A stretch of 64,000 bases of DNA from an uncultured Alphaproteobacteria bacterium (GCA_913061155.1 CAJXSI010000004.1:4-64003); one strand, 5' to 3'; positions 15,901-43,650 are shown, counted from the stretch's first letter. A program made the numbers and translations. Notes: generated by a model from the sequence alone, not told the origin.

Positions 15901-16539
15901 AGATTATAACCATCGCCAACGCCAAATTAAAACCTTTAACAACATAGTTGATCCACAACACTATTCATCACAGACAATGAAGAGGGTCTGTCTTTGCATA
16001 GAATCGTCGCCCTGGTGCTTGACACCAGGATCCAGACCAGGGGTTGCCGGATACAAACCGCCTGCCTTTTAGCTTATGACTGGATTCCGGATCCAGAAGT
16101 CTATGGCAATCAATTTGTCTGTGATGAACAGTATTATGGATCCCACGGTCAAGCCGTGGGATGACGGCAAAAAAGAAGTGTTATTTACCCAATCCCTTGT
16201 TCCGTCATTGCAAGTATCAATAGGATACGCGGTGATCCATACTGCACCTCCAACCTCGTCGCTCCGCACTTGATCCGGGATCCAGTCATAAGCTTAATGA
16301 CAAACTAAAGTTGTGTCTAGTGAATCCCGCTCTGGGCCCCGCATCAAGTGCGGGGCGACGAAGTGAGATAGGGGCATCATAAACAAAAGGCAGACGCGTC
16401 GAACTCAGTAACCTATGGTCTGGACCCCGCATCAAGTGCAGTGCGACGAAGTTGAGGGGTGTCAAGTGGCACATGGATTCTGTTTGTCGCGCCAACGCCA
16501 ACGCCAAATTAAAACCTGCAACAACATAGTTGATGACAA
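15901..16539. repeat. Palindromic mosaic array A: REP copies at 16004-16034(+), 16137-16167(-), 16256-16284(+), 16333-16361(-) and 16421-16449(-), a collapsed copy at 16081-16094, and IS110 3'-end modules at both borders
   Basis: Read directly: YGTC-stem-CTTGA-stem-CCA units, with spacer modules shared with arrays B-D. Confidence 0.9.
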
Positions 16540-16578
16540 ACTAAAACTGAAATCAAAAATATTATTTAATAAAATGGC

Positions 16579-18798
16579 TTAAGAAAAACGATTGGATCTT
16601 GGAAATCCAGGAGGGGCAAAGCGACCCGTGCTGGCGCGTTTACCAACCCATTCTTGCACATTTTCCAATGTATATTGCTTTTTCCCGTTTTGCCATGACA
16701 GACCTTCTTGCAAGGTAAAGACTTTTAAATCAGACAAACCGCCACCACGATATTTCTGTAAAATAACCCCACGACCGCGGGTCATTAAAGGAATTTCTGA
16801 AATTGGCACAACCAATAAACGACGGTTTTCACCGATCATGGCAACATAGTCCCCATCGGCAGGCACAACCACCTGGGCTTTGGCGGGGGCCTTAACATTC
16901 AAAATTTGCTTTCCATTTTTGGTTTGCGCAAAGACATCTTTTTCATTAACCATAAATCCACGCCCGTCATCAGCCGCCACCAAAAGTTGGCGTTGGCTAT
17001 CCCCTTTGGCTGTAAGAACAGTCAGAATATTACTATCATTTTCAAGGTCAATCAATAAGCGCAATGGCTCTCCAAAGCCACGGCCACGGGGAATTTTGTC
17101 CCCAATAATGGTATAAAACCGCCCATTATCAACAAAGAATAAAATCTGGTCTGTTGTTTCGGCCTTGATTATTTGGAAGACTTTATCCCCCTCTTTAAAC
17201 TTGAAATCATGATCATCTTGATGGCCTTTTACCGCACGAATCCAACCTTTTTCAGACAGAATAATGGTAATTGGTTCTTTATCAATCATGGCTTCAAGCG
17301 GCATATCTTCAACTTCGTTCGCCGTTTCAAACTGGGTACGGCGTGCCCCAATCTGGGTTGACTTCCCAAATATTTTTTGGATTTGTTTTATTTCACCTTT
17401 GATCTTTTGCCAGCAAAGTTTTTCATCTTTCAACAAACCTTCCAGTTCTGATTTTTCCGCACTTAAGGCTGAATGTTCTTGCTTTATTTCAATTTCTTCA
17501 AGCTTGCGCAAAGACCGCAAACGCATATTTAAAATGGCATCCGCCTGAATTTCGGTCAGATGCCATTTGGCCATCATGATCTGTTTTGCATCGTCTTCTT
17601 CACGAATAATGCGAATTACCTCGTCCAAGTTTAAGTAGGCAATTAAATAGCCCTCTAGAATTTGCAGACGATGATTAATTTTATCCAAGCGGTGGATGCT
17701 GCGATTTTTTAAAACCACCAAACGGTGATCTAGAAAGGCTTGAAGAACCTCTTTCAAATTTAATACACGGGGCACATTATGCCCATCCACAACATTCATA
17801 TTTAATGAAGTACGTGTTTCCAAATCTGTTTGTTTAAACAAGGCCTGCATTAAAACTTCGGGTTTTACATTGCGACTTTTGGGGATTAACACGATACGCA
17901 CATCTTCCGTGGATTCATCTTGGATATCGGCTAAAATCGGTAATTTTTTGGACAACACCAAATCAGCCAAGCGTTCAACCAAACGACTTTTGGGAACTTG
18001 ATAGGGGATTTCAGTTATTATAATTTGATATTGGCCGCCTTTGACTTCTTCTACTTCATACTTTGCGCGAATACGAAAACTGCCGCGGCCTGTTTTGTAG
18101 GACTGAAGAATAGAGGCAGGTTCTTCAACCATGATGCCCCCTGTCGGAAAATCTGGGCCTTGAACATGCTCAACCAATTCTTCAATCGTTGAACTGGGCT
18201 TTCGAATAATTTGTAACAATGCTTCGCATAATTCATCTGCATTATGGGGGGGAATACTGGTGGCCATGCCCACTGCAATTCCCTCTGACCCATTGGCTAA
18301 CAAGTTTGGGAAGGCCGATGGCATAACAATCGGTTCTTGAAATTCCCCATCATAAGTGGATTTCATGGGAACAGATTCTTCTTCTAAGCCAATCATCATG
18401 GCTTCGGCAACGGCTGTTAATTTTGCCTCTGTATAACGCATCGCCGCCGCGTTATCCCCATCAATATTTCCAAAGTTCCCTTGCCCAAGGATCAAAGGAT
18501 ATCGAATGGTAAAATCTTGGGCAAGACGCACCAATGTATTATAGACGGCCAATTCCCCATGTGGGTGAAACTTACCAATGACGTCCCCAATAATACGGGC
18601 TGATTTTTTTGGGCTGCCTTTAGAATCCAATTTCAATTGACGCATCGCAAACAATATACGACGATGCACCGGTTTTAAACCATCCCGAACATCCGGTAAG
18701 GATCTGGACATAATTGTCGACAAAGCATAAGAAAGATACCGTTCACTTAACGCTTCTTTAAAAGAGACTGGTTTTATATTGGTTTTCTGGTCTGTCAT
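16579..18798 (-). CDS. parC: DNA topoisomerase IV subunit A
   Basis: YLSYALSTIMSRSLPDVRDGLKPVHRR, GDNAAAMRYTE, no GyrA box; downstream of recO. Confidence 0.96.
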   Translation of the reverse strand: MTDQKTNIKPVSFKEALSERYLSYALSTIMSRSLPDVRDGLKPVHRRILFAMRQLKLDSKGSPKKSARIIGDVIGKFHPHGELAVYNTLVRLAQDFTIRYPLILGQGNFGNIDGDNAAAMRYTEAKLTAVAEAMMIGLEEESVPMKSTYDGEFQEPIVMPSAFPNLLANGSEGIAVGMATSIPPHNADELCEALLQIIRKPSSTIEELVEHVQGPDFPTGGIMVEEPASILQSYKTGRGSFRIRAKYEVEEVKGGQYQIIITEIPYQVPKSRLVERLADLVLSKKLPILADIQDESTEDVRIVLIPKSRNVKPEVLMQALFKQTDLETRTSLNMNVVDGHNVPRVLNLKEVLQAFLDHRLVVLKNRSIHRLDKINHRLQILEGYLIAYLNLDEVIRIIREEDDAKQIMMAKWHLTEIQADAILNMRLRSLRKLEEIEIKQEHSALSAEKSELEGLLKDEKLCWQKIKGEIKQIQKIFGKSTQIGARRTQFETANEVEDMPLEAMIDKEPITIILSEKGWIRAVKGHQDDHDFKFKEGDKVFQIIKAETTDQILFFVDNGRFYTIIGDKIPRGRGFGEPLRLLIDLENDSNILTVLTAKGDSQRQLLVAADDGRGFMVNEKDVFAQTKNGKQILNVKAPAKAQVVVPADGDYVAMIGENRRLLVVPISEIPLMTRGRGVILQKYRGGGLSDLKVFTLQEGLSWQNGKKQYTLENVQEWVGKRASTGRFAPPGFPRSNRFS

Positions 18799-18882
18799 TT
18801 TTGTCTTAAATTATATTATTTACTTAGGTATCCAACCTGATGATGTCACTGATTATAAACGATGGCGCATGCAGTAACAGCA

Positions 18883-19608
18883 TTAAATTGGATAACTCTT
18901 TAACAGATTAACTAAGCGCTCTCGCATAGTAAAGAACTCTTTATACTTGGGTTCACAATAATGAATTTTCATAAAGTATTCTGTCAATTGAAACCCTTCT
19001 ATTATTTGATTTTTATCAGCTTTTACCCCTTGTGTCAAAAATCCAGGTAACGGCAATAATTTATCTTTGTAAGGCCCTGCGGCCCCCGATGCAACGGCCC
19101 GCCCTGTTTTTGGCGATACATATTTTAAATCGTCAAAGGAACCTGTAACACAGCATTGATCTAACTTTAAGGCAAATCCCAATTCCCCTATCATCGTTAA
19201 TTCAAACTTAATATAATATTGCAGCCAATCTTCAGTCGATAAGGATTCAATGAATTTTAATAATTCTTGATATAGATATTCATAAGGGTGCCGTTCTGGC
19301 AAGACTTTTATAATAAAGCCAGTTACGGCTGATAAGGCCAGCATTTTTTGTTGGGATTCAATAATGGCCCCCAAAGAACTTTTGATTAATTCTAAAGAGA
19401 AAGTACCAAGATGTTCGTCCAATCTTGCCCGCCATGTGGCCTGAACCAGGGATCCAGGTGAAACAGCCAACCGCATATTTTTTGATTTAAGGCTACGTGC
19501 CACCCCTGTACAATGGCCATTATTTTGGGTCAAAAGGTGAATAACACCTTTTCCTTCCCCAAACGGGCGGACACCTAAAACAATGCCATTATCTTGCCAT
19601 GTCGCCAT
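18883..19608 (-). CDS. recO: DNA repair protein RecO
   Basis: W.D.GIVLG.RPFGE, WRARLDEHLG, CCVTG...YVSPKTGRAV. Confidence 0.96.
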   Translation of the reverse strand: MATWQDNGIVLGVRPFGEGKGVIHLLTQNNGHCTGVARSLKSKNMRLAVSPGSLVQATWRARLDEHLGTFSLELIKSSLGAIIESQQKMLALSAVTGFIIKVLPERHPYEYLYQELLKFIESLSTEDWLQYYIKFELTMIGELGFALKLDQCCVTGSFDDLKYVSPKTGRAVASGAAGPYKDKLLPLPGFLTQGVKADKNQIIEGFQLTEYFMKIHYCEPKYKEFFTMRERLVNLLKSYPI

Positions 19609-19648
19609 TTATATTTCCTAAGCACGGATGATATTCTTATTAATTTGC

Positions 19649-19791
19649 GGGATTGTTACCCGCTGATATTTTTCTGGAGCGCGTTTTAGGAAAAGATAGA
19701 TTTGTAGGCGCAGCGTACCTGGCGTACGGGAGACATCAGAAATAATATTTTCAGCTAAAACCATTCCAAAAGTGTGTTTTGCAACGATCCC
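19649..19791 (-). repeat. About 143-bp RPE-1-like MITE, copy 1
   Basis: Imperfect TIRs GGGATTGTTAC...GCAACGATCCC and an internal GCAGCGTACCTGGCGTACG. It aligns end to end with 59000-59138. Confidence 0.75.
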
Positions 19792-19825
19792 TTAAAGACT
19801 TTATCACTATCGGGCCCCGTATGTC

Positions 19826-19880
19826 ATCAACTATGTTGTTGCTGGTTTTAATTTGGCGTTGGCGATGGTGATAATCTTAC
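19826..19880 (-). mobile_element. Isolated 3'-end fragment of the IS110 element (encodes ..[15 protein letters not shown] followed by TTGAT)
   Basis: Near-identical to 38030-38085 and 15901-15952. Confidence 0.85.
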
Positions 19881-19979
19881 TGAATTTAACGGACTGTTGC
19901 GTAGCCGTTCTTTTTGGCCGATTTTTGACGTGGGCAGGAATCAATTGAAACAGAACAAGATCTTAAACCAGTCTATGTT

Positions 19980-21203
19980 TTAGCTTTGCTTTTTGACATG
20001 GGAAGGAATCAATAGAAACAGGGCAAAACAGCTGAACAAGCTGATGGCGGCACTGGTTAAGAACAACGTAGAATGACCGTACATATCCCAAATTGTGCCG
20101 GCAAACCAACTGGATATAAAGATCGCGATTCCCATTGTAATATAGAAAATACCAAAGGCTGTCCCGCGGATATATTGCGGCGTTACATCTGAAATAAGCG
20201 AGACAAATATAGATTGCGTAATACCAAACTGCGCCCCCCACAAAAACACCCCGCACATTACCAGAAAAATACTATGCGTTATCGCCATCGTTACCCCGGC
20301 AAAAATCATCAAAAGAAACCCGCCTAACAAGACCTTACGACGTTCCATTGTATCGGAAAGACGGCCCAAAGGATACGCAACCAAAAATTGTCCTACGTTA
20401 AAAACCAACATAACTAAGGAAATATTTTCATTCAAAAGACCTGCGTCACGAACCCTGAAAACCAGATAGGATTCCCCAAAATGGGCCAGTTGAAAAATGG
20501 CTGTCAGAATAATAATTTTCCAATACGATCGGTTAAGTTCTTTAAAGGCACTCCACCGAAATTTCTTTTCATGTTTTTCTTCATCGCTGACAGTAAATTT
20601 ATTTTTGTGATTGGGTTCTTTAACGCAAAAAACAAATAGAATCAAGGCAAACCCTGCAGGGATTGTTGCATATAAAAACAAGGTGCGTAGGGAAATATCT
20701 GAATAAGTAAGAATAACGACAACTAAGGCAGAACCAATGAAAGAGCCCGCTGTTTTCAAAGACTTCGTCAACCCGTAAGATGCACCCCGAACACCCTTAG
20801 GGGCCAAATCACCAATCAATGCATCGCGCGGAGATGCCTGAATTCCGTTACTTATCCGATCCAAAGAACGAATCCAAAAGATCCAAACAACACTGCCCGC
20901 CATGGCGAACATAGGCTTTACAAGCATGGATAACGTATACCCCACCCCTAAGACAGCTTTGCGATTTTGAAAGATATCCCCGACAGCGCCGGAAAAGATA
21001 CGGATCAGATAAGCAACGAATTCAACGAATCCATCAATGCGTCCTACTTCTGTTCTAGAGGCCCCCAGTTCAGTTTCCATGAACAAAGGCATAACACTGA
21101 ACACCATAATTGTCGCAAGGTTGATCAAAAGGCCTACAAGACCTAATATCCATATACCTTTGGGAAGACCCAGAATTTTTTTCTCGTTTATATTTGGCAT
21201 CAA
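19980..21203 (-). CDS. MFS transporter
   Basis: About 12 hydrophobic segments; GAVGDIFQNRK, RDALIGD and GRLSDTMERRK motif-A-like loops. Confidence 0.92.
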   Translation of the reverse strand: MMPNINEKKILGLPKGIWILGLVGLLINLATIMVFSVMPLFMETELGASRTEVGRIDGFVEFVAYLIRIFSGAVGDIFQNRKAVLGVGYTLSMLVKPMFAMAGSVVWIFWIRSLDRISNGIQASPRDALIGDLAPKGVRGASYGLTKSLKTAGSFIGSALVVVILTYSDISLRTLFLYATIPAGFALILFVFCVKEPNHKNKFTVSDEEKHEKKFRWSAFKELNRSYWKIIILTAIFQLAHFGESYLVFRVRDAGLLNENISLVMLVFNVGQFLVAYPLGRLSDTMERRKVLLGGFLLMIFAGVTMAITHSIFLVMCGVFLWGAQFGITQSIFVSLISDVTPQYIRGTAFGIFYITMGIAIFISSWFAGTIWDMYGHSTLFLTSAAISLFSCFALFLLIPSHVKKQS

Positions 21204-21270
21204 TTTTTTCGATATTAAAAAAGAAAGGTACTCAACTTAAGGTTAAAAAACAACCCCTATAATAAAATAA

Positions 21271-22395
21271 TTATACTAAGCCAGGCGACCTTAAAAATAC
21301 TTTTGATTTTTTATCTATGTTTAAAGGCAATTTCTGTTGAACAATTGACCGTCGCATAATCGCTGTTAAGGGAACAAATTCAACCCCCTCTGTTTGTTTT
21401 TCCTTAATCCAAGCCAATGTTTCTTGCAAAGCCTTGGTTTCTGGGCTGACAAAAACAATCAGATATTTATTTTTTTCAAGAACACGATTTGCAACTTCTT
21501 TTATATCTGTTTTTTTATCCTTAAAAGTAAAACTTAAATGCCGCCTTAAGTAAGGGGATTTCAATTCCCGCGCCACATCCAACGCCTTGCTGTCCTTTGT
21601 TGTCATTGAATCAAGAAAGATGTATCCCTTTTTCTTTAAGATAGCCAACAGCTTTTTTATCGACCCTTGATTACTTGTAAACGCACTTCCCATTTGATTA
21701 CTGACCCCAATAACATAAGGAGTTTTTCGTAAAATATTTTGGACATAATCGTTTATTGTTTTTTCTGAATCATTTGCTTTCAGCCATTTTTTCCCCTTCA
21801 TAACCTTCGGAAGTTTTGATGGGTATAAAGGTTCCATAGGAATATGCGCCACAACTTCACGGCCTTTTTTATTGGCTAATTTCGCCAATTTTTGATAATT
21901 TTTATCATCCGTTGAAATTGTATAAGTCAAAGGAATATCATAATTTTTAAGGGCCTGCCATTCCCCCTGTTTTGCCTTGTTCACATCATTAATCACAATG
22001 GCCACCATCGGCTTATTAAGCCTATAAGGCCAGGAAACAGCATTCTTTAGCCACTTTGGTTGCTGTACTTGAACAAAAGGTTTTGACGTTGTTTCTTGTT
22101 GTTTGAAAACTTGCACCAATTCCGAATCGTCAAAGGCCTGGGCTGCAATCACATCTTCTTTAAGATCATCCATGTTTTCCAAATCATAAATGGTATCATC
22201 CCCATAGGCAGATCCATTTTCTTCTGTTAAAACCTCCGCATTAACAGAGGGGGGAATAACTTTTGGAGTATCTTTTAAAGAAGGCAACAGAAAAACGATT
22301 AAGGTGGAAACCAAGGCAATTAAAATAACCCACAAAACAAATTTGTTTTGTTTATTTTTTTCAGTTATTTTGGCTGGAAGACGACGGTCTGTCAT
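21271..22395 (-). CDS. Divergent polysaccharide deacetylase family protein (YibQ/DUF610-like) with an N-terminal membrane anchor
   Basis: PMVAIVIND, HIPMEP, GVSNQMGSAFT and FLDSMT motifs. Confidence 0.8.
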   Translation of the reverse strand: MTDRRLPAKITEKNKQNKFVLWVILIALVSTLIVFLLPSLKDTPKVIPPSVNAEVLTEENGSAYGDDTIYDLENMDDLKEDVIAAQAFDDSELVQVFKQQETTSKPFVQVQQPKWLKNAVSWPYRLNKPMVAIVINDVNKAKQGEWQALKNYDIPLTYTISTDDKNYQKLAKLANKKGREVVAHIPMEPLYPSKLPKVMKGKKWLKANDSEKTINDYVQNILRKTPYVIGVSNQMGSAFTSNQGSIKKLLAILKKKGYIFLDSMTTKDSKALDVARELKSPYLRRHLSFTFKDKKTDIKEVANRVLEKNKYLIVFVSPETKALQETLAWIKEKQTEGVEFVPLTAIMRRSIVQQKLPLNIDKKSKVFLRSPGLV

Positions 22396-23426
22396 GCCAT
22401 AGACTTTTTTAAATTCATAATGCGATCGTATGCTTCATCTATACGTGTCTCTGGAACAATCCCTTTTTTAACAGCCTTTACAAGAATATTTACTGATTTT
22501 TCACCAATATTTGGATCGGGTTCAAAACCGTCAACCCCCATAGCCGCCGCCTTATTATTTGAAACAATCACCATATCACACCCCGCCAAAACAGAATTAA
22601 TCAAGGCTTCATCATATTTGTAATGCTGTTGAATGGCCCCCATATGCAGATCATCTGTAATGATAACCCCATCAAAACCGGCATGACGTAACTTGTCTAA
22701 AGTTTTCTTGGATAGGGTTGCCGGATGTTCTGGGTCCAGATTTTTATTGTAAATATGGGCGGTCATAACGGAATCAATTTTGCCTTGTTTGGCCAATTCA
22801 TAAAAAGGGATTAATTCTTTTTCATCCCAATTTTCTGTAACGTCCACGTATCCTTCGTGTGAATCCCCTTGGGCACTGCCATGGCCTGGAAAGTGTTTGA
22901 TACAATTAACCACCTTATTGTTTTTCAAGGCATCAATCATCGTTCCGGCATATTTAACAACTTTGCCAGGGTCTGAAGAATAACTTCTTTGCAAATCCCC
23001 AATAACAGGACATTTATAACCAGGGGGGTTTACATCCACACAGGGGGCAAAGTCAAAGTTAATGTCATGGGTATGAAGTTCAGATGCCAATTTATGATAC
23101 CAATCTGCAGCGTCAGATTCCGTCATTCCAGCAATTGATTGCGCAGAGGGATAAGTCGTAAAGCCATTTCCAGCATTCAGACGTTGAACACGGCCGCCTT
23201 CTTGATCAATGGAAATAAAGAAAGGCAGTTTGGCAGATTTTTTAAAAAATTGGGCCAAGGCCTTTACTTGTTCAGGGCTTTCGACATTGTAATTAAATAA
23301 AATTGTTCCGCCGGCAAGTCCTTGTTCAACCTGTTTGGCAAAGTCTTTAACGCTTGCTTCCTTTGAAGATTTTCCTTGGAAGCCCACGATCAGCATTTGA
23401 CCAATTTTTTCAAATAATTCGGCCAT
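22392..23426 (-). CDS. nagZ: Glycoside hydrolase family 3, beta-N-acetylhexosaminidase
   Basis: SIDQEGGRVQR, KHFPGHG and ITDDLHMGAI. Confidence 0.88.
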   Translation of the reverse strand: MAELFEKIGQMLIVGFQGKSSKEASVKDFAKQVEQGLAGGTILFNYNVESPEQVKALAQFFKKSAKLPFFISIDQEGGRVQRLNAGNGFTTYPSAQSIAGMTESDAADWYHKLASELHTHDINFDFAPCVDVNPPGYKCPVIGDLQRSYSSDPGKVVKYAGTMIDALKNNKVVNCIKHFPGHGSAQGDSHEGYVDVTENWDEKELIPFYELAKQGKIDSVMTAHIYNKNLDPEHPATLSKKTLDKLRHAGFDGVIITDDLHMGAIQQHYKYDEALINSVLAGCDMVIVSNNKAAAMGVDGFEPDPNIGEKSVNILVKAVKKGIVPETRIDEAYDRIMNLKKSMA

Positions 23427-24322: not shown

Positions 24323-24351
24323 ATTGTCCCCTTATTATATTTTATGCGTCT

Positions 24352-24981: not shown

Positions 24982-25064
24982 GGTGTGAATCCCCCTGGTT
25001 TATTTATCACATGGTTAAATATGTCATGATAAAGGACGAAATGCAATACTTTCAAAGTATTAAC

Positions 25065-25592: not shown

Positions 25593-25642
25593 TGTATTGC
25601 CCAGTATTTTAGAACTTTATCAAACGCTACCGCCCGCAGAAA

Positions 25643-25732: not shown

Positions 25733-25822
25733 AATTAAAAAATCAGTGATATAAATCATTGAGTTATAAAAAGGAATATGCCATCATTGAATTAATTTTC
25801 AAGCAAAATTTATAAAAACATT

Positions 25823-30537: not shown

Positions 30538-30579
30538 CTTTATACAGCGAGAATGAACTGGGTTTCATCTTCTTTTACT

Positions 30580-30957
30580 TCGTCGCCCTGAATTTAGCCT
30601 GTCCTGGACTCCGATTAAGAAGGTCTGTCTTTGCATAAAACAGTCGCCCCGAACTTGATGCGGAATCCAGTCATAATCTAAAAGGCAGGCGGGTTGTATC
30701 GGGTGAATACTTTTCTGGACCCCGCATCAAGTGCGGGGAGACGAGAGGTTGGAGTGTCAAGTGCGGGGAGACGATTTCTATGCAAAGAAAGACCCTCTTC
30801 ATTGTCATTCCGGACTTGATCCGGAATCCACAGCGGTGTTTACTCCAGATACCTTGATTGCTGTAGACCTCTAGGACCCTGGTGTCAAGCACGGGGCGAC
30901 GACTTCTATACAAAGACAGCCCCTCTTTTCGTCTTCCCGGATTTGATTCGGGATTGC
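30580..30957. repeat. Palindromic mosaic array B: REP copies at 30642-30669(+), 30716-30744(-), 30755-30774(- partial), 30802-30830(+), 30872-30902(-) and 30929-30957(+)
   Basis: Same REP units and spacers as arrays A, C and D. Confidence 0.9.
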
Positions 30958-30970
30958 AACAAAATGGGCG

Positions 30971-31002
30971 TGTCAAACACAGGCAGGTGCCTGTGTTTGA
31001 CA
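30971..31002. terminator. Perfect 15-bp-stem hairpin TGTCAAACACAGGCA-GG-TGCCTGTGTTTGACA downstream of gapR
   Basis: Exact inverted repeat 18 bp past the stop of the convergent gene; no strong U-tract. Confidence 0.5.
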
Positions 31003-31020
31003 AGGAAGTTTATCGAAATA

Positions 31021-31278
31021 TTATTCGCCTGAAGGGACCAATCCCAAGGCTTTTTTATAAAGATCCAGCATATATTCTTGTTCTTGACGGTCGTCATGAT
31101 CCATCTTGCGCAATTTTACAATCTCTCGCAAAGTTTTTGTGTCAAAGCCATTCCCTTTTGCTTCGCTGTACACTTCACGCACATCTTCTGAAACTTTGGC
31201 TTTTTCTTCTTCTAAATTTTCAATACGTTCCACATATGATTTTAATTGTTCTGCAGAAACGCCACCTATATTTGTCAT
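31021..31278 (-). CDS. gapR: DUF2312 / GapR nucleoid-associated protein
   Basis: AEQLKSYVERIENLEEEK...EAKGNGFDTKTLREIVKLRKMD. Confidence 0.9.
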   Translation of the reverse strand: MTNIGGVSAEQLKSYVERIENLEEEKAKVSEDVREVYSEAKGNGFDTKTLREIVKLRKMDHDDRQEQEYMLDLYKKALGLVPSGE

Positions 31279-33037: not shown

Positions 33038-33061
33038 CTTACATTTACTCCTGAAATAATT

Positions 33062-33759: not shown

Positions 33760-34032
33760 ATGAATAAACAAGAATTAATCGATCACGTAGCAAAGCAAGC
33801 AAGCATGTCAAAAGCTGACAGTGAGAGAGCTGTTAACGCTGTTTTCCAAGGTATTTCAGATACTTTAGGTCGCGGACAAGATGCCCGTTTTGTTGGCTTT
33901 GGGACATTTAACGTTGCAGAACGTAATGCACGCAATGGGCGCAACCCACGCACTGGCGAAACTATTAGCATTCCTGCATCACGCGTTGCGCGTTTTCGTC
34001 CAGGAAAAGAACTAAAAGATTCCCTTAATTAA
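33760..34032 (+). CDS. hup: DNA-binding protein HU
   Basis: MNKQELI, VGFGTF and RNGRNPRTGETI. Confidence 0.96.
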   Translation: MNKQELIDHVAKQASMSKADSERAVNAVFQGISDTLGRGQDARFVGFGTFNVAERNARNGRNPRTGETISIPASRVARFRPGKELKDSLN

Positions 34033-34039
34033 AAACTGT

Positions 34040-34068
34040 GCGGGGGGAAATCCCTCGCTTTTATTTTT
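34040..34068 (+). terminator. Intrinsic terminator after hup
   Basis: GCGGGGGGAAATCCCTCGC hairpin followed by TTTTATTTTT. Confidence 0.6.
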
Positions 34069-34070
34069 GC

Positions 34071-34856
34071 ATGAAAACACTTGTAAAATTTCAAAAATAC
34101 ATTCCATTAATTTTTATCTTATCGGGATTAGGTTTAATCCTTTTTTTTGATCTTCATCGTTATTTAAATTTCGAAACCTTACAAAAACATCAATCTTTTT
34201 TAAAAGAATACATCCAAATATACCCCCTTTATTCGTTCTGTTTCTTTGTGCTTATTTATACCATTGCAACAGCCTTTTCGGTTCCTGGAGCAGCGATTTT
34301 AACAATTACTGGCGGGTTTTTATTTGGTACATTTATCGCATCCTTAGCCATCGTCATAGGGGCAACAACCGGGGCAACGTGTATATTTCTTGCGACGAAG
34401 TGGGCTTTTCTTGATTTTTTCAAGAAAAAAGCCGGCCGTTCCTTAAATAAGTTTTCCAAAGGTTTTTCTGAAGATGCATTTAATTACCTATTAACCTTAA
34501 GGTTAATTCCCATTTTCCCTTTCTGGTTGATAAATATTGCCCCTGCTTTTTTCAAAATTAAATTATCTACTTATATTACAGCAACGGCTTTGGGGATCAC
34601 CCCTGGTGTTATTGTCTATAGTTCTTTAGGAAATGGACTTGGGGCACTATTGGCAGCAGGGGAAACCCCAGATCTTGGCATTATTTTTCAACCAAAAATC
34701 TTTCTTCCTTTATTAGGGTTAACGATTTTATCCACCTTGCCAATTCTATGTGAACCACCACGGGGCAAGCCCCGTGGTATCCTGTCGAGCGTCACTCGAG
34801 TACAAGCTGCGCTTGCCCCCTATCTTCTTCCCCTTGCCTTTCAATATATTTTCTAA
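34071..34856 (+). CDS. TVP38/TMEM64 (YdjX-like) membrane protein whose C-terminus was replaced by an IS200 insertion
   Basis: VPGAAILTITGGFLFG and LRLIPIFPFWLINI. The native frame ends at 34749 and the tail after that is IS-derived. ATG at 34071. Confidence 0.88.
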   Translation: MKTLVKFQKYIPLIFILSGLGLILFFDLHRYLNFETLQKHQSFLKEYIQIYPLYSFCFFVLIYTIATAFSVPGAAILTITGGFLFGTFIASLAIVIGATTGATCIFLATKWAFLDFFKKKAGRSLNKFSKGFSEDAFNYLLTLRLIPIFPFWLINIAPAFFKIKLSTYITATALGITPGVIVYSSLGNGLGALLAAGETPDLGIIFQPKIFLPLLGLTILSTLPILCEPPRGKPRGILSSVTRVQAALAPYLLPLAFQYIF

Positions 34857-35301
34857 TAACTTCTTCATTTAACCCAACCGTTGAAACAAAATACCCATCT
34901 GACCATATCCCATCAATACCCCAATACGCTTTTCGCATATATTCATATTTCTTCTTTAATAATCTGCCCGTTGTTGATTTGATCCGCCGAACGACATCGC
35001 TTATTCTTATCTTTGGCGGTATCGATAATAATATATGGATATGATCCTCATCATGATTTACTTCCAACATCTTTACTTCGGGCATCCCATCATAGATGAC
35101 TCCCTTCATCACTTCACAAAAATACCTAAAGGTTCCCTCGTTGAATATCTTTCGACGATATTTTGTCACTATTACCAAATGATATTCACATTTATAGACG
35201 CAGTGTCCCTGCTTTCTTAATTTCATGCATCCTATTATACAAAGAAGATAGGGGCTTGACTACATCCACGGGGCAAGCCCCGTGGTTTTACGCCGGCTTT
35301 A
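34750..35301 (-). mobile_element. IS200/IS605-family element, tnpA only
   Basis: Identical subterminal hairpins CCACGGGGCAAGCCCCGTGG at 34758-34777 and 35266-35285. The right end is TTCAC, the left end follows TTTAT, there is no target duplication, and removing it restores the host frame. Confidence 0.9.
34792..35226 (-). CDS. tnpA: IS200-type Y1 (HUH) transposase
   Basis: YHLVIVTKYRRKI, HIHILL (HUH), WSDGYFVSTVG and catalytic YIERQ. Confidence 0.96.
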   Translation of the reverse strand: MKLRKQGHCVYKCEYHLVIVTKYRRKIFNEGTFRYFCEVMKGVIYDGMPEVKMLEVNHDEDHIHILLSIPPKIRISDVVRRIKSTTGRLLKKKYEYMRKAYWGIDGIWSDGYFVSTVGLNEEVIRKYIERQGEEDRGQAQLVLE

Positions 35302-35322
35302 ATAAAAAAATGAAAAAGAAAC

Positions 35323-36756: not shown

Positions 36757-36866
36757 GTCTTGAACGTCTTGGAAAGACTGTTCCCCAGTATTCATGGGGG
36801 TCTTGAAAATTTATAAACCATTCCCATATATATAGTAAGAACTTTAAAAACAATATATAGGGATAA

Positions 36867-37493
36867 ATGATTAAAATGATTAAGATTTTATTTAACAGAT
36901 ACACCAATTTTATTATGTTTGGCCTGGTATCAGGTGCCATCCTTGCATCCAGTATGCTTTCTGCGACAACGGCAGATCATAATGTACCTGTTTGCCCCCA
37001 AATAAATAATTCAGAGGATAAAGAACAAAAATTAAGTGATGTTTCTGCAGATGACTTACAAAAAGAAATTGCCAAGTTATCTGCAAAACAGCAGAAAGAG
37101 GTGGATGTTATAGCAAGAACCGTTTATGGCGAAGCCCGCGGGGAAAAAACGGATGATGCCTTAAAAGCCATTGCCCACGTTATTTTAAATCGAACGACTG
37201 ACAAGGAAAAGAAATGGGCCAGCTGTCCGATTAAAGTATCACAACAAAAATATCAGTTTTCTTGTTGGAACAAGAATGATCCGAACTATAAGTTAATTAC
37301 AAAGATCACACTGAAAAACAAAAATTTCAGACGGTCTTGTCGGGCTGCCCTGCAGGCTATAAAAAGTAAAGATATCACAAATGGCGCCAACCATTACCAC
37401 AGTGTCTTTATGAAACGTAAGCCACGATGGGCAAAAAATAAAAAGATGATTGCCTTGGCCCGCATCGGAAACCACAAGTTTTACAGAGCCTAA
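36867..37493 (+). CDS. Cell-wall hydrolase, SleB/CwlJ (Hydrolase_2) family
   Basis: ARTVYGEARGE, VILNR, YQFSCWN, GANHYH and IGNHKFY. Confidence 0.9.
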   Translation: MIKMIKILFNRYTNFIMFGLVSGAILASSMLSATTADHNVPVCPQINNSEDKEQKLSDVSADDLQKEIAKLSAKQQKEVDVIARTVYGEARGEKTDDALKAIAHVILNRTTDKEKKWASCPIKVSQQKYQFSCWNKNDPNYKLITKITLKNKNFRRSCRAALQAIKSKDITNGANHYHSVFMKRKPRWAKNKKMIALARIGNHKFYRA

Positions 37494-37496
37494 ATC

Positions 37497-37522
37497 AAAA
37501 GCCCCAGAAATGGGGCTTTTTT
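37497..37522. terminator. Bidirectional-type intrinsic terminator
   Basis: AAAAGCCCCA-GAAA-TGGGGCTTTTTT. Confidence 0.8.
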
Positions 37523-37666
37523 GTTCAACAATAATCAATATTTTTTAGAGAAAATCTAAGGAGATGACCTATATACGTAAGTTACGTATGCTTTAAAAGA
37601 CCTAATTTTAAAAAAAATAAAAAAGGGGTTGGCGAAAGCCCCTAAAAATAGTATATAAAAGTGTGT

Positions 37667-37742
37667 GCCGGCTTAGCTCAGTTGGTAGAGCAACTGATTT
37701 GTAATCAGTGGGTCGGGAGTTCGAGTCTTCTAGCCGGCACCA
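37667..37742 (+). tRNA. tRNA-Thr(TGT)
   Basis: GCCGGCTTAGCTCAGTTGGTAGAGC-ACTGA-TTTGTAA-TCAGT...GTTCGAGTC...CCGGCACCA. Confidence 0.97.
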
Positions 37743-37925
37743 TACTTTTTCAACGGCCTTAGGCCACCCCCCATCCTGTTTCAAAAAATAATGAAGTTAC
37801 AAAATCTTATGATTTTCTGTTACTAGACGTGTAACCATTACAAACTTGTTGCATGTGTAGATGTCTCCTGAAAGTATTTTATGTGTTGTATCAAAATCGA
37901 TTCTGAATAGCCAATCGAATTTGAT

Positions 37926-38034
37926 TCTTCGCCTCGTGTATAAGTTCACAAATTCACTGGCTGTTTTGATTCGTCGCCCCGCACTTGATGCGGGGCCCAG
38001 GGCGGTAGTCATCGGACACAATTTTCGTCATCAA
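37926..38034. repeat. Left part of mosaic array C: REP at 37971-37999(+) plus spacer modules, inverted relative to 38640-38738
   Basis: The reverse complement matches the modules at 38665-38738 and 43064-43139. Confidence 0.85.
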
Positions 38035-38835
<801 letters not shown>

Positions 38836-38910
38836 GAATAAGGAGTCTATCAAATTTATATATATACAAAGATGGATTGCTTATAGGTACGCATTAAAGC
38901 AGATACGCGT

Positions 38911-38935
38911 AAAAAAAAGAGGGGCAAAGCCCCCC
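38911..38935 (-). terminator. recA intrinsic terminator
   Basis: On the minus strand, GGGGGGCTTTGCCCCTC followed by 8 T. Confidence 0.75.
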
Positions 38936-38963
38936 AGTTTGGTAGTAAATAATAAGGTCTAAA

Positions 38964-39995
38964 TTACGCGTCAGCTTTGGCAACTTCGGCGTCTGCCAAG
39001 TTGTCGATAATACCACTTTGTTCCCGCAATTTACTTTCAATTTCATCGGCAACGTTGGGGTTTGCCTTTAAGAAACGGCGGGCAGATTCTTTCCCTTGGC
39101 CAATTTGATTGCCATTATAGGAATACCAAGATCCGGCCTTTTCAATTAAGTCAGCCTTCACGCCCAAGTCAATTAATTCACCAGTTTTGGAAATTCCTTG
39201 GCCGTACATAATATCAAATTCAACCACTTTGAACGGGGGCGCCACTTTGTTTTTTACAACTTTCACACGGGTTAGGTTTCCGACAACCTCGTCCTTATCT
39301 TTGATTGCGCCAATCCGACGAATATCAATACGAACAGAGGCATAGAATTTTAATGCATTCCCACCTGTTGTTGTTTCAGGGTTTCCAAACATAATCCCAA
39401 TTTTTTGACGAATTTGGTTAATAAAGATGACCATGGTACGGGATTTTGAAATGGATGCTGTTAATTTACGTAAGGCTTGACTCATCAACCTTGCTTGCAG
39501 ACCCATGTGGGAATCGCCCATTTCGCCTTCAATTTCGGCTTTTGGAACTAAGGCGGCGACACTGTCAACAACCAACACATCAAGGGCACCAGAACGTACC
39601 AAAGTATCGGCAATTTCCAAAGCTTGTTCCCCTGTATCTGGCTGGGAAATGATTAAGTCATTTGTGTTAACGCCAAGTTTACGTGCATAAACGGGATCCA
39701 AAGCATGTTCAGCGTCAACAAACCCACAAACACCCCCTTTTTTCTGGGCTTCGGCAATGACATGTAAGGTCAATGTTGTTTTCCCAGAACTTTCCGGTCC
39801 ATAAATTTCGATGATACGCCCGCGCGGTAATCCGCCAATACCAAGGGCCATATCTAACCCAATGGATCCTGTTGATACGGCATCAACTTGAACAGGGTTT
39901 TCATTTTGACCCAATGTCATAATGGCGCCTTTTCCAAAAGATCTTTCGATCTGTTTAAGGGCGGCGTCTAAGGCTTTGTTTTTTTCTGAACTCAT
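38964..39995 (-). CDS. recA: Recombinase RecA
   Basis: [24 protein letters not shown] and [10 protein letters not shown]. Confidence 0.99.
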
Positions 39996-40015
39996 GTCTG
40001 GACCTTTTTATCTTC

Positions 40016-40040
40016 TGGATCCCACATCAATTGCGGGACA
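40016..40040 (-). repeat. Degenerate solitary REP 20 bp upstream of recA
   Basis: TGGATCCCACATCAATTGCGGGACA resembles the reverse-strand REP consensus. Confidence 0.55.
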
Positions 40041-40287
40041 GTATTTAATGTCATTTGATAGCCATAACTTACCATGTTTTTTTGGGAAATCAAACCTATA
40101 CAATTATAATTTCCTTTAATATTTTATAGGACTGTTGCGTAGCCGTGCTTTATATAAAAACCTGACATCCCATCAAGAGTGAATTGATTTACTTATTTTC
40201 TTGTCACTCGGCGGGTTTTTGGATTTAATTGATGATCTCCATATTCTGTGATAGCCTTAGTTCATAAATAAAAATTAAGGGGTTGGG

Positions 40288-40620
40288 ATGAGGCACTTTC
40301 ACACAAAATTTTTGTATCTTTTGTTGTTTACATTTTCGGTATCAGATTCGTATGCTGCAGCTGAAGAAGGTGTCTTTCCTGTAACAAAAGTACCCATTGC
40401 CAAATTACCCTCCATTGCAAGAACAGCAATTGAAACAAGTTTTTCAAAAACTGTAAAAATACTTCCCCAAATGGCCGTAGTTTTTGGCCTTTATTCGTAT
40501 CCTTATCCACATAAAGAAAGTGCCCCTGTGTTAAGAAGACGCGCCGCCTCAAAACCCCAAATTTCTGTTAGCCCTGAAACTATGTATGGTTGGTTGGTAA
40601 GACAATTTGGGGTATTTTAA
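40288..40620 (+). CDS. Small exported hypothetical protein
   Basis: Signal-like N-terminus ending SYAAAEE; GGGG RBS-like sequence upstream; no family recognised. Confidence 0.5.
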   Translation: MRHFHTKFLYLLLFTFSVSDSYAAAEEGVFPVTKVPIAKLPSIARTAIETSFSKTVKILPQMAVVFGLYSYPYPHKESAPVLRRRAASKPQISVSPETMYGWLVRQFGVF

Positions 40621-40725
40621 TGCCAAATTTATCGCAATCTTACAGTTTTCATCATAATTCTTTCAATAAATCCTTGTCCTAAAGTGGGATCATGCATTAT
40701 ATAGAATATGTATATTTAATTATAT

Positions 40726-40752
40726 TGTCATCCCACGGCTTGACCGGGGGAT
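40726..40752 (+). repeat. Solitary REP upstream of aspS
   Basis: TGTCATCCCACGGCTTGACCGGGGGAT matches the 16137-16167 stem variant. Confidence 0.75.
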
Positions 40753-40785
40753 ATATTTTTATTTGAAACACAAAAAAGGATTATT

Positions 40786-42573
40786 ATGCATCCCTACAGA
40801 ACACATACATGTGGCCAAATACGCAAAAGTGATACCGGAACCATTGTCCGCCTATCGGGGTGGATTCATCGCAAACGTGATCATGGAAATTTACTTTTCA
40901 TCGATCTGCGGGATCATTACGGGATGAGTCAATGTGTGATCGATTCTGATAATCCGTTGTTTAAATTCGCTGAAGAAGCCCGTGTTGAAAGTGTTATTAC
41001 CGTCACGGGGCAGGTTATTGACCGCGAGTCATCAACCATTAATCAGACGCTGCCAACCGGTGAAGTCGAAGTACAAATTACAGGTATTCATGTGGAATCA
41101 CCTGCAGATGTTTTGCCTTTGCAAGTTAACGTTGACCGGGAATTCCCTGAAGAAACACGTTTAAAATACCGCTTTTTGGACTTACGCCGGGAAAAAATTC
41201 ACAGCAATATCGTTTTGCGTAATAATGTGATTTCCAGTATCCGTCGTCGCATGACCGACGCTGGGTTTATGGAATTCCAAACGCCTATTTTAACGGCCAG
41301 TTCCCCCGAAGGGGCACGTGACTTTTTGGTTCCCAGCCGTTTGCACCCGGGTCAGTTTTATGCTTTGCCGCAAGCACCCCAACAGTTCAAACAACTATTG
41401 ATGATGTCTGGTTTTGACAAATATTTCCAAATTGCCCCCTGTTTTCGGGATGAAGATGCCCGCGCAGACCGTTCCCCAGGGGAATTTTATCAGCTTGATA
41501 TGGAAATGTCTTTCGTAACCCAAGAAGATGTCTTTAATGCCATTGAACCTGTTTTACATGGTGTGTTCGAAGAATTCAGTGCGGGACGTACAGTCACACC
41601 AGCCCCGTTTCCACGCATTCCATATGCAGACGCCATGTTAAAATATGGATCTGACAAGCCAGATTTGCGTAACCCCATTTTAATCAGTGATGTGACAGAT
41701 GTTTTCCGGGGATCTGATTTTTCAATTTTTGCGAAAAACATTAATAACGGGTCTGTGGTTCGGGCCATTCCGGCCCCAGGATCGGCTGACCGTCCCCGCA
41801 GTTTCTTTGACAAAATGAATGACTGGGCACGCGGAGAAGGGGCCCCAGGCCTTGGCTATATCATTTTTGCAAATGGCGAAGCCAAAGGGCCGATTGCCAA
41901 ATTTTTGAACGCTGACCGTCTTGATATGTTGAAATCATTAACAGGTGTTCAGGATGGGGATGCTGTTTTCTTTGCTTGTGATAAAGTAAAGGGGGCGGAA
42001 CATTTGGCTGGCAAAGCCCGGACAAAGGTTGGCGAAGATCTGGATCTGATTGAAAAAAATGCGTTCCGTTTTTGTTGGGTGGTTGATTATCCGATGTATG
42101 AAATGGATGAAAAAACAGGCAAAATTCAGTTCAGTCATAATCCATTTTCCATGCCACAAGGCGGGATGGGTGTTCTTGAAACCCATGATCCCTTATCCAT
42201 TTTGGCGTATCAATATGATATTGTCTGTAATGGAATTGAACTGTGCAGTGGGGCGATTCGTAACCACTTGCCGGAAATTATGTACAAAGCTTTTGGTATT
42301 GCAGGATTTTCCAAAAAAGATTTAGAAGCCGAATTCGGCGGTATGCTACGGGCCTTGAAATTTGGCGCACCGCCACATGGAGGGTGTGCACCAGGTGTCG
42401 ACCGTATGGTGATGTTGTTAGCGGATGAGCCCAATATTCGCGAAGTTGTGGCGTTTCCAATGAACCAACAAGCCCAAGATTTGTTGATGGGGGCTCCGGG
42501 GTATGTTGATAAAGCCCACTTGCAAGAGGTCCACATTCGTGTGGTTGAGCCCCCAAAAACGGATAAGGGGTAA
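40786..42573 (+). CDS. aspS: Aspartate--tRNA ligase
   Basis: [37 protein letters not shown] and GAPPHGG. Confidence 0.98.
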
Positions 42574-42628
42574 GGTTTGGACCAGAGTTTTTTTGGTTTC
42601 ATCAGTGTTGCTTATTTATGGGTGCGCC

Positions 42629-43290
42629 GACACCAGGATCCGGTCATAAACTAAAACGGCAGGCGGGTTGTGTCTGGTGAGTGCCGCCCTGGACTCTGGT
42701 GTCAAGAACGGGGTGACGATTTCTATGCAAAGACAGGCCCTCTTCATTTGTCATTCCGGACTTGACCCGGAATCCAGAACACTGTTCATCACAGACAATT
42801 TGATTACCCTTAACAACATAGTTGATGACGAATGATTATACCCCGGTGATTCTATACGTATCGTCGCCCCGGACTTGATCCGGAATCCACAGCGGTGCTT
42901 ATCCCAGATACCTTGTCTGTCAGAGATACATGGATTCTGAACTAAATTCAGAATGACGAATTATTATACCCCGGTGATCTTATACGTATCGTCGTCCCGG
43001 ACTTGATCCGGGATCCAGTCATAATCTAAAAGGCAGGTGGGTTGTATACGGTGAATACCGCCCTGGACCCCGCATCAAGTGCGGGGCGACGAATCAAAAT
43101 AGTCAACGAATTTATGAACCCCTATATACGGGGAGACGACTTCTATGCAAAGACAACCCCTCTCAATTGTCATTCCGGACTTGATCCGGAATCCAGTCCA
43201 CCTTGGACATCTTTCTTCATTGTCATTCCGGACTTGATCCGGAATCCACAGCGGTGTTTACCGGATACAACCCGCCTGCCGTTTTGTTAC
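42629..43290. repeat. Mosaic array D (largest): REPs at 42690-42719(-), 42748-42776(+), 42861-42889(+), 42931-42959(-), 42989-43017(+), 43064-43092(-), a variant ending at 43139(-), 43167-43195(+) and 43220-43248(+); IS110 end at 42808-42826
   Basis: Read directly. Confidence 0.92.
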
Positions 43291-43620
43291 CCCCTGAAAA
43301 AACCTAGTCTGGATAAAATTAACGGGAAATGGTATGCGTTTTACGCATGAGTAAATAAGTCAGTTATTTCAGCTAGTTATATTTATTATGGGCCTGTAAC
43401 CTGCATTAATTGGTTGGGCCTGTTTTGCCTGAGCCATGCGCGCGTAGGCACTTTTTTAATAAAAAAATTAATTTTCGCAGTTTTGCGTGCCTATTTTTTA
43501 GGCACTTTAACGCAATTATGAAGCAAAGCGAAAAAACCCATTGGCTGAGGTTAACCATACTTGTGTCAATATGTCCAGATTTTGGGCGACTTTAACGGGA
43601 AACCTGGTGAAAAATGGGGC

Positions 43621-43650
43621 TGGATCCTGGTGTCAAGCACCAGGATGACC
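43621..43650 (-). repeat. Solitary REP upstream of the hydrolase gene
   Basis: TGGATCCTGGTGTCAAGCACCAGGATGACC. Confidence 0.85.

Follow-up and report, generated by a model that had tools for sequence, protein, structure and literature searches.

The window analysed here is a 64,000-nt stretch of DNA from an uncultured alphaproteobacterium (GCA_913061155.1, CAJXSI010000004.1:4-64003), and its subject is a family of short hairpins that we identify as CGTC-tagged repetitive extragenic palindromes (REPs). The repeats are confined to five regions: from a histidine phosphatase gene to the convergent parC (15885-16578), between convergent genes before obg (30538-31274), from tRNA-Thr to recA, again convergent (37743-38963), between the divergent recA and aspS, where two single decayed copies stand (39996-40785), and downstream of aspS (42574-43733). 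The closest named relatives of the encoded AspS, at 72-74% identity, are Candidatus Paracaedibacter, a member of the Holosporales, and Alphaproteobacteria metagenome-assembled genomes (MAGs), and the window sequence matches metagenome contigs and marine runs. By these similarities the host is an alphaproteobacterium related to Holosporales; a Coxiella-like gammaproteobacterium, suggested at first by G+C content and two Coxiellaceae hits, was rejected in view of the AspS relatives.

Hairpin repeats in five intergenic regions

Strict patterns scanned on both strands gave 15 matches for GTC-N8-CTTGA-N8-CCA and 4 for GTC-N9-CTTGA-N9-CCA, against 0.00 and 0.02 expected from shuffles of the window. 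Together, a relaxed scan, with tag, loop and tail loosened, and a covariance model (R1) built from 20 copies and run unfiltered over the whole window yielded 26 REP copies, 15 on the plus and 11 on the minus strand, the first beginning at 16005 and the last ending at 43650. The initial annotation of this DNA had described about 25 copies of the form TYGTC-stem-CTTGA-stem-CCA; all the stem pairs that it listed are present. Besides the 26 there are one degenerate copy (40015-40039) and, by direct reading, about seven half or collapsed copies. All 26 copies are intergenic, and the covariance model found no REP inside any gene of the window at E<0.002. The tag is CGTC in 17 copies, TGTC in 7 and different in 2. 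Stems have 8 bp in 21 copies and 9 bp in the other 5, and the loop is 5 nt long throughout, with CTTGA in 23 of 26 and CTTGG, TTTGA and TTTAG once each. The tail is CCA in 22 of the 26.

Copies listed below without further comment, other than that at 40726-40756, were recovered by both the strict pattern and the covariance model. Between the histidine phosphatase gene and parC lie two copies with 9-bp stems, one on the plus strand (16005..16035, GCCCTGGTG/CACCAGGAT around CTTGA, model E 4e-06) and one on the minus strand that was found by pattern and model alike and folds as DNA at -10.4 kcal/mol, z -4.8 (16136..16166, ATCCCACGG/CCGTGGGAT). They are accompanied by a plus-strand copy with the mismatched arms GCTCCGCA/TCCGGGAT, which fits the strict pattern but does not fold (16257..16285, z +1.1), by the minus-strand copies GCCCCGCA/TGCGGGGC (16332..16360) and GCACTGCA/TGCGGGGT (16420..16448), and by a collapsed copy, CTGGATTCCGGATCCAG, seen by direct reading and given no strand (16080..16096). 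The region before obg opens with a plus-strand copy that carries the tag AGTC and the mismatched arms GCCCCGAA/TGCGGAAT (30642..30670, strict pattern, z +0.5). It continues with TCCCCGCA/TGCGGGGT (30715..30743, minus), a directly read half copy of tag, 5' arm and loop only (30755..30774, minus) and ATTCCGGA/TCCGGAAT (30803..30831, plus). It closes with two copies found by the covariance model, one with the mismatched arms GCCCCGTG/CACCAGGG (30873..30901, minus, z 0.0) and a degenerate one, TTCCCGGA-TTTGA-TTCGGGAT, with the tail TGC (30930..30958, plus).

Between tRNA-Thr and recA we found GCCCCGCA/TGCGGGGC (37972..38000, plus) and a 9-bp stem, GTCCTGGTA/TACCAGGAC, that was also recovered by folding (38458..38488, plus). 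There follow GCCCCGTG-CTTGG-CACGGGGC, from the relaxed scan and the model (38533..38561, minus), ATTCCGGA/TCCGGGAT (38591..38619, plus), GCCCCGCA/TGCGGGGT (38664..38692, minus), the half copy CACGGGGCGACGA, consisting of tag and 5' arm (38726..38738, minus; a second such half copy lies at 43127-43139), and GTTCCGGA/TCCGGAAT with the tail TCA, again from the relaxed scan and the model (38766..38794, plus). The two single copies between recA and aspS are the degenerate one just upstream of recA (40015..40039, minus, model E 0.005), which is kept in the related loci L123 and L125, and ATCCCACGG/CCGGGGGAT upstream of aspS (40726..40756, plus), which is degenerate in L123 and a further relative, L124, and absent from L125.

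Downstream of aspS the array begins with a half copy of 3' arm and tail (42629..42643, plus), located where similarity to L123 stops, and a copy with the mismatched arms ACCCCGT./CACCAGAGT (42689..42718, minus, model E 0.0014). Next come ATTCCGGA/CCCGGAAT (42749..42777, plus), the mismatched arms GCCCCGGA/TCCGGAAT (42862..42890, plus, strict pattern, z -1.4) and ATTCTGAA-TTTAG-TTCAGAAT (42930..42958, minus, relaxed scan and fold), whose 3' arm equals the guide 8-mer of an insertion sequence (IS) of the IS110 family at locus L127, described below. The remaining copies are GTCCCGGA/TCCGGGAT (42990..43018, plus), GCCCCGCA/TGCGGGGT (43063..43091, minus, also recovered by folding), ATTCCGGA/TCCGGAAT twice on the plus strand (43168..43196, also recovered by folding, and 43221..43249) and the 9-bp stem ATCCTGGTG/CACCAGGAT (43620..43650, minus). 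Three copies (30803-30838, 42862-42897 and 43221-43256) share a tail ending in GGAATCCACAGCGGTG, in which ATCCACA resembles the 3' part of a DnaA box, a resemblance only.

The folded hairpin is the conserved object

Covariation within the window was assessed on 20 copies with 8-bp stems, with 500 shuffles as control. Paired cells made up 89.7% of the observed stems compared with 78.5% after shuffling, two-sided changes occurred at 5 of the 8 stem pairs, and none of the 500 shuffles reached the observed covariation score. Pairing fell to 14-49% when the partner arm was slid by one to three columns. The folding energies of canonical copies as single-stranded DNA range from -5.5 to -10.4 kcal/mol (z scores -3.7 to -5.1).

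The same holds in more than 100 other genomes. An alignment of 150 model-based matches (62 distinct sequences), which was fitted to the model and is thus biased towards it, was 97.8% paired, with two-sided changes at all 8 pairs. In an unbiased check, in which matches were selected by tag, loop and tail alone, we found 31 further matches with stems outside the seed pattern, for example ATGCCGGA, ATTGCGGG and ATCCTTGGA, and 27 of these pair at all or all but one of the stem positions. Because covariation is seen both in the window and across genomes, the hairpin itself is conserved: its two arms covary, whereas tag, loop and tail are held constant. This is what the initial annotation had proposed, with a covariance model as the way to examine it, and on this point it stands.

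Its wording that the stem varies freely goes too far. The CCG/CGG core at stem positions 4-6 is nearly invariant, variation falls on the three outer and two inner pairs, and the stems sort into about seven discrete types. Arms of unlike types are joined in five copies, those beginning at 16257, 30642, 30873, 42689 and 42862; four of these were folded, and none was better than shuffled sequence (z +1.1 to -1.4). Discrete types in place of a continuum are what one would see if the stem variants were unrelated families that have a loop in common by chance, with no selection on structure. We regard this explanation, which the initial annotation had named as the finding that would overturn its own, as hardly credible: tag, loop, tail and linkers are common to all types, the types stand side by side, zero matches are expected by chance, and pairing survives the two-sided changes both in the window and across genomes. 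Common tag, tail and linkers, together with covariation, therefore exclude chance sharing of the loop.

The repeats belong to the CGTC-tagged REP superfamily

In 2013, Di Nocera, De Gregorio and Rocco described a superfamily of CGTC-tagged REPs with a short unpaired tail, mostly CCA, in hosts that are mainly Alphaproteobacteria (PMC3733652). Its families contain sub-sets that differ in stem, loop or tail, inverted pairs are formed by unlike units, and the survey found the repeats without an associated transposase gene (PMC3733652). The window repeats have the unpaired CGTC or TGTC tag, a stem of 8-9 bp, a loop within the 4-5 nt of the class and a tail that is mostly CCA; they are present in many, mostly intergenic copies and form inverted pairs with 45-nt and 28-nt linkers. 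No dedicated transposase flanked by the repeats was found in the window or among the 118 loci listed from other genomes (see below). Because tag, stem length, loop length, tail and inverted pairs match the published description, we assign these repeats to the CGTC-tagged REP superfamily, a known class that is here found in a new host. The initial annotation had pointed to such a class in alphaproteobacteria, and both the match to PMC3733652 and the alphaproteobacterial host agree with it.

We scanned bacterial and archaeal assemblies, one genome per species, with the degenerate 27-mer GTCRYYCCGSACTTGAYSCGGRRYCCA. Repeats of this kind were found at 118 genome loci or more, many of them in Sphingopyxis, a genus already named as REP-rich (PMC3733652), in Sphingomonas and in other alphaproteobacteria. 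Isolates among the matches listed also include Agrobacterium, Kaistia and Flagellimonas. The 27-mer further occurs in MAGs labelled Patescibacteria, Chloroflexi, Nitrospirota, Omnitrophota and Campylobacterota and in one Methanosarcinales archaeon, where misbinning is possible. Such MAG loci, among them L006, L023, L039, L050 and L076, lie beyond the five phyla reported in 2013, and with them the class would extend to very distant phyla.

Arrays are mosaics with conserved linkers and high copy number

The arrays are mosaics of hairpins in alternating orientation and a few conserved linkers, which the initial annotation had overlooked. Linker L1 (about 45 nt; 38620..38663, plus, from repeat-family comparison) joins REPs with facing CCA ends and recurs at 30671-30714, 42644-42688 and 43019-43062, with a variant at 16286-16331 and reversed copies near 16036-16079 and 43250-43290. 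Linker L2 (about 28 nt, CTTCTATGCAAAGACAG.CCCTCTTCAT; 38562..38590, plus) joins REPs with facing tags and is found again at 30775-30802, 38739-38765, 42720-42748 and 43140-43167, and reversed at 15978-16004 and 30615-30641. Linker L3 (about 32 nt, ..AGTCAGCGAATTTGTGAACCTATA; 38693..38725, plus) is followed by a half REP and occurs also at 43092-43126 and reversed at 37939-37970. Each linker recurs 3-7 times in the window, and a 133-nt composite of unit, L1, unit and L3 is present three times. Inverted pairs are present, with partners that have different stems, for example ATTCCGGA with GCCCCGCA, whereas the two REPs of a REPIN (a doublet able to form a single long hairpin) are alike. This layout is that of the bacterial interspersed mosaic elements (BIMEs) of E. 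coli and the neisserial intergenic mosaic elements (NIMEs).

In one public assembly with full identity to the window, assembler depth rises from about 69 over genes to 1000-3400 over REP modules, or 15-50 times the single-copy value; REP modules are thus present at tens of copies per genome. Close relatives carry very different loads. L123, a 180-kb contig with an AspS 95% identical to that of the window, has 3 units in 21.8 kb, and L125 (AspS 94% identical) has about 19 units in 15 kb, in arrays that are similarly built and contain a homologous L1 linker. Downstream of aspS, similarity between the window and L123 stops at 42624-42629, where the array opens with a half unit. In L123 and L125, rplM-rpsI comes next after aspS, either immediately or with two or three small open reading frames (ORFs) in between, whereas in the window the array and, beyond it, a hydrolase gene take this place. 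On the far side of recA, too, the neighbouring genes of the window are not those of the two relatives. From these comparisons, arrays lie at breaks in gene order, on the downstream side of both aspS and recA, and their loads are unequal between close lineages. The single copies at 40015-40039, found in both relatives, and at 40726-40756, decayed in L123, are older. Also between recA and aspS, 40197-40209 and 40703-40772 are replaced by 957 and 186 letters in four related assemblies, and L125 has an ankyrin-repeat ORF between the two genes. In L125, a REP (ATTACCCGAC...GTCGGGTAAT, 451-519) is interrupted at the stem-loop boundary by a 31-nt insert.

A role in RNA is unlikely

The position of the arrays raises the question of whether the hairpins act mainly as RNA, as stabilisers of 3' untranslated regions (UTRs), as terminators or as tRNA-acceptor-like CCA ends. 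Of the five REP regions, three separate convergent genes and another follows aspS, so that many copies may fall in 3' UTRs; contigs from an RNA library of low depth run from aspS and recA into the array edges, where DNA carry-over is possible; and the 2013 paper also considered such roles (PMC3733652). The depth of this library, one poly(A) metatranscriptome, is about 3, too weak to judge transcription. Against an RNA function stands the mixed orientation of the units, 15 to 11 overall and 5 on the plus to 4 on the minus strand downstream of aspS. Because both orientations occur within single transcription units, about half of the units would be transcribed as the complement (UGG...GAC), without a 3' CCA. 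L123, moreover, has no arrays at the same genes. We therefore consider it quite unlikely that the hairpins serve chiefly as RNA.

Two specific forms of this idea were rejected. No REP in the window was called as a terminator and none stands before a T run; for recA, a separate canonical terminator lies at 38919-38935, ahead of the array. The initial annotation had speculated that a hairpin ending in unpaired CCA might mimic a tRNA acceptor end. This fails on the mixed orientation and on the structure, in which CCA adjoins the stem without a discriminator base and the stem has 8-9 bp, not the 12 bp of a tRNA minihelix. ARAGORN and Rfam, moreover, report only the two true tRNAs of the window and no tRNA or RNA-family match at the repeats.

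The only HUH gene in the window belongs to an IS200-type element

Comparison of the 63 window ORFs of at least 120 residues with Pfam gave no RAYT (REP-associated tyrosine transposase), GIY-YIG or other nuclease gene flanked by REPs, which the initial annotation had suggested seeking. The only HUH/Y1 gene is a full-length one at 34792-35226 on the minus strand (Pfam Y1_Tnp, E 6.5e-35). Its product scores 121.9 bits with the NCBIfam IS200 model (cut-off 55) and 27.4 with the REP-associated transposase model (cut-off 80), and its closest solved relatives are transposases of the IS200/IS608/ISDra2 type. The gene lies within a complete IS200-type element of 552 bp (34750-35301, minus), flanked by identical 21-nt palindromes, ACCACGGGGC-AA-GCCCCGTGGT, at 34757-34778 and 35266-35286. 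In a related strain, 34750-35301 is cleanly absent from this site and stands at the start of another contig, which indicates that the element is active. Its insertion alters the 3' end of a DedA/VTT-domain ORF (34038-34856). At the left edge of the window, the C-terminal part of a Tn3-family transposase enters at 28-876 (DDE_Tnp_Tn3, E 1e-100).

Could this Y1 transposase cut and copy the CGTC repeats in trans? The protein is intact and full-length, the element is mobile, Y1 transposases act on single-stranded hairpins, and the arms of its end palindromes include CACGGGGC/GCCCCGTG, the 8-mers of one REP type. We nevertheless consider this very unlikely. The protein scores as IS200 and lies below the RAYT cut-off; its palindromes, with a 10-bp stem, a 2-nt loop and neither CGTC tag nor CCA tail, occur only twice in the window; and the covariance model placed no CGTC unit beside the element. 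IS200-type genes are likewise found in many CGTC-positive species, and none is flanked by CGTC repeats (PMC3733652). The gene at 34792-35226 was accordingly rejected as a RAYT, being below the cut-off and having different palindromes of its own.

Outside the window, a tblastn search with the Y1 protein against all loci matched a single, unrelated metagenome locus. When the ORFs of the 118 loci listed were clustered in search of a shared neighbour gene, no family recurred beyond common housekeeping domains.

An IS110-family element is aimed at the foot of the hairpin

Remains of an IS110-family element lie in and beside the arrays, a second feature that the initial annotation had missed. The largest relic, at 38030..38427 on the minus strand, comprises the C-terminal 130 codons of the transposase (Pfam Transposase_20, E 2.5e-17) and the right end ...CATAGTTGAT; its ORF (38035-38427, minus) is 94% identical over the shared part to that of L127, a locus from another metagenome. 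Four shorter relics consist of the last 20-58 nt of the element: 15897..15952 (plus, 56 nt, then CCA; sequence repeat and L127 match), 16492..16534 (plus) and 19826..19880 (minus, outside the REP arrays), both recognised as sequence repeats and followed by GACA, and 42806..42826 (plus, about 21 nt), next to which stands GACGAATGATTATACC, a flank that it shares with the intact REP at 42930-42958. All five relics end in CATAGTTGAT, stop codon included; next comes the REP tag in reverse (GACG or GACA) in four of them and the REP tail (CCA) in one. The left end (TGTAAGT...) was not found in the window arrays.

The starts of two relics, 15897-15952 and 19826-19880, all but coincide within the element (..TAAGATTAT..), about 57 nt before its end. 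This start resembles the true left end TGTAAGTT, and the pair could represent either a tiny two-ended derivative or a recurrent deletion. The first relic is directly preceded by a 28-nt repeat (15873-15900) that extends across the stop codon of the histidine phosphatase gene and matches, at 89% identity, a stretch inside the same gene (15569-15596).

L127 retains the 5' part of the element. The gene starts at 401 with MTLYQNFIGIDIGK and is preceded by a 236-nt non-coding region, and the left end, TGTAAGTTG, abuts a complete tagless hairpin, TGG-ATTCTGAA-CTAAA-TTCAGAAT, so that the junction reads TTCAGAAT|TGTAAGTT. In the window this hairpin is intact at 42930-42958 and is followed by GACGAATTATTATACC. 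Taken together, the L127 junction, the intact hairpin and the relic at 42806-42826 place the insertion point between the terminal dinucleotide AT of the 3' arm, found at both junctions, and the CGTC tag. The arrays are landing sites for the element, which enters between the tag and the stem foot, where AT forms the core.

In L127 the non-coding region contains TTCAGAAT, the sequence of the REP arm, within the conserved scaffold GCGACCG, one base, 8-mer, GGT. In L122, whose element is 67% identical, GCGGCAAT stands both in the scaffold position and to the left of the insertion. We compared the two positions in 55 related metagenome loci in which both scaffold and left end could be found (L127, L122 and 53 others from L128-L206). 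In 30 of the 55 the non-coding 8-mer is identical to the 8 nt that adjoin the element on its left, and in several more it is one base off; in a cross-locus control, 117 of 2970 pairs match, all from the common target GAAGCAAT. That target is common to 11 of these loci and looks like the base of a further CGTC-type hairpin (L201, for example, has CGTCATTGCGAGCGCAGCGAAGCAATCCAG).

IS110/IS1111 elements use bridge-RNA or seekRNA logic, and several, such as IS621, ISPpu9 and ISPpu10, target REPs (PMC11187229, PMC11208160, PMC12288879). With a Transposase_20 domain in the window and a non-coding segment that matches the target flank in its relatives, the element described here appears, by sequence, to follow the same logic, as a new example of a known principle. 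Since the guide 8-mer equals a REP arm, the stem types would also be address labels for an RNA-guided recombinase. A reading as an IS1111-type element, in which REPs would lie in a 3' non-coding region and a half REP would form the right end, was dropped because of the 236-nt upstream non-coding region in L127 and the five relics ending in ...CATAGTTGAT. With covariance model R1, CTTGA-type REPs were found at high score in 1 of 80 related IS loci, the closest relative; the others fall short of that score because they target other hairpins.

These observations permit another account of the arrays, in which the REPs are passengers of the IS110 recombinase: modules of REP and linker, along with the right-end relics, would be excised as small circles and reinserted at REP feet, and arrays would grow through the IS machinery and not through an HUH enzyme. 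Five right-end relics lie in or beside the arrays, two of them sharing a 5' border about 57 nt before the end, and a REP-containing flank of about 125 nt is common to two IS copies at different loci. In many metagenome loci, relatives with the left end TGTAAGT are found at the foot of a CGTC-like hairpin (flanks such as GAAGCAAT). ISPpu9 forms circles of separate modules, as shown for its ssr9 module, and the CGTC repeats are without a known transposase (PMC3733652). However, insertion uses the REP as a target without duplicating it, the left end is found nowhere in the arrays, REPs of this class are abundant where no such IS is nearby (and score highly in only the one of 80 IS loci), and no transposase recurs near REPs among the 118 loci listed. 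That the REPs spread as such passengers is therefore an unlikely, minority reading, if a more interesting one than copying by a RAYT-like enzyme; the IS110 element aimed at the tag/stem junction is itself a clear but unsurprising addition. The wider proposal that the missing CGTC mobiliser is itself an IS110-type recombinase, with arm-swapped and half REPs as its footprints and gene order broken by the same action, we likewise hold to be improbable.

Proposed origin of the arrays

Our preferred explanation, to which we give a somewhat better than even chance, is that CGTC-tagged REPs in BIME/NIME-like mosaics are selfish, non-autonomous units copied in trans by a RAYT-like HUH enzyme. A trans-acting protein would read the single-stranded hairpin with its unpaired tag and copy the units. 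By analogy with what has been proposed for the CGTC-1 repeats of Neisseria, this enzyme would be RAYT-like and encoded outside the window. The Neisseria ATTCCCGCGCAGGCGGGAATC REPIN, which is of the CGTC-1 type, was assigned to a Group 2 RAYT (Bertels and Rainey, 10.1101/2021.07.10.451892); given that link, our leading guess is a RAYT elsewhere in the genome. Recombination, and the insertion and decay of IS copies in the arrays, may have produced the half copies and those with mismatched arms as by-products.

Several observations weigh against this explanation. No RAYT was found in the window, just as the 2013 survey was without a CGTC-linked transposase (PMC3733652), and no Y1 gene lies near the REPs among the 118 REP-bearing loci listed. 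Among the relatives, no REP unit with sharp borders was seen to be gained or lost; their short-read contigs end at arrays, so that mobility can be read only from copy number and lineage differences. The window also departs from the published class in two respects. Dense clusters have been called rare for CGTC repeats (PMC3733652), unlike the dense arrays of the window. In the class, A-T pairs are "almost invariably" found at the first and second stem positions (PMC3733652), and 12 of the 26 copies begin the stem with GC or GT instead; the ATTCCGGA, ATCC..., ATTCTGAA and ACCCCGT types conform, and elsewhere, in the other-genome alignment, A is near-universal there. Finally, the IS left end and guide are known only from L127, at 94% identity in another metagenome.

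By themselves these results are of modest weight: the repeat class of the 2013 paper gains an uncultured marine host among the alphaproteobacteria, and the REP-aimed IS110 elements gain a further case, with its insertion point pinned to the junction of stem foot and CGTC tag. Close relatives with 3 and about 19 copies in comparable stretches offer material for catching the gain of a unit.

Comparison with known systems

Among the published families, CGTC-2 resembles the 8-bp copies of the window in its 8-bp stem and 5-nt loop, and CGTC-3/4 resembles the 9-bp copies in its 9-bp stem and 5-nt loop (PMC3733652). Both share with the window the CGTC or TGTC head, the CCA tail, the presence of sub-types, inverted pairs of unlike units and the lack of an adjoining transposase. 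The window differs in that nearly half of its stems start with GC or GT and in its dense arrays of up to 12 units with conserved linkers; the comparison covers the described features, loop length among them. The Rickettsia palindromic elements RPE-4 and RPE-6 are likewise CGTC-1 and CGTC-4 repeats in an intracellular alphaproteobacterium (PMC3733652). Many of their copies lie within genes, compared with none here.

In Neisseria, dRS3 repeats are integration sites for IS110/Piv-type recombinases. Like the window repeats, dRS3/NIME (CGTC-1) has the skeleton GTC-ATTCC...GGAAT-CCAG and forms intergenic mosaics in which hairpins alternate with other short repeats, but dRS3 has a 4-nt loop, one master sequence and an assigned RAYT gene, NMAA_0235 (10.1101/2021.07.10.451892). 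The REPs, BIMEs and REPINs of E. coli and Pseudomonas differ from the window in having a GTAG tag, no CCA tail and a RAYT gene flanked by repeats. They are alike in being short tagged hairpins, intergenic, in alternating orientation and with specific linkers, and in being targets of the IS110 family.

The window element differs from IS621, ISPpu9 and ISPpu10 in targeting the stem-foot/tag junction of a CGTC-class REP, in being present as truncated relics only and in that its RNA is predicted. It is otherwise of the same kind: all have a transposase, of the predicted DEDD type in the window element, with a C-terminal Transposase_20 domain, a long upstream non-coding region containing a short variable segment that equals the target flank, a fixed insertion point in the REP, and modules and relics scattered through the genome.

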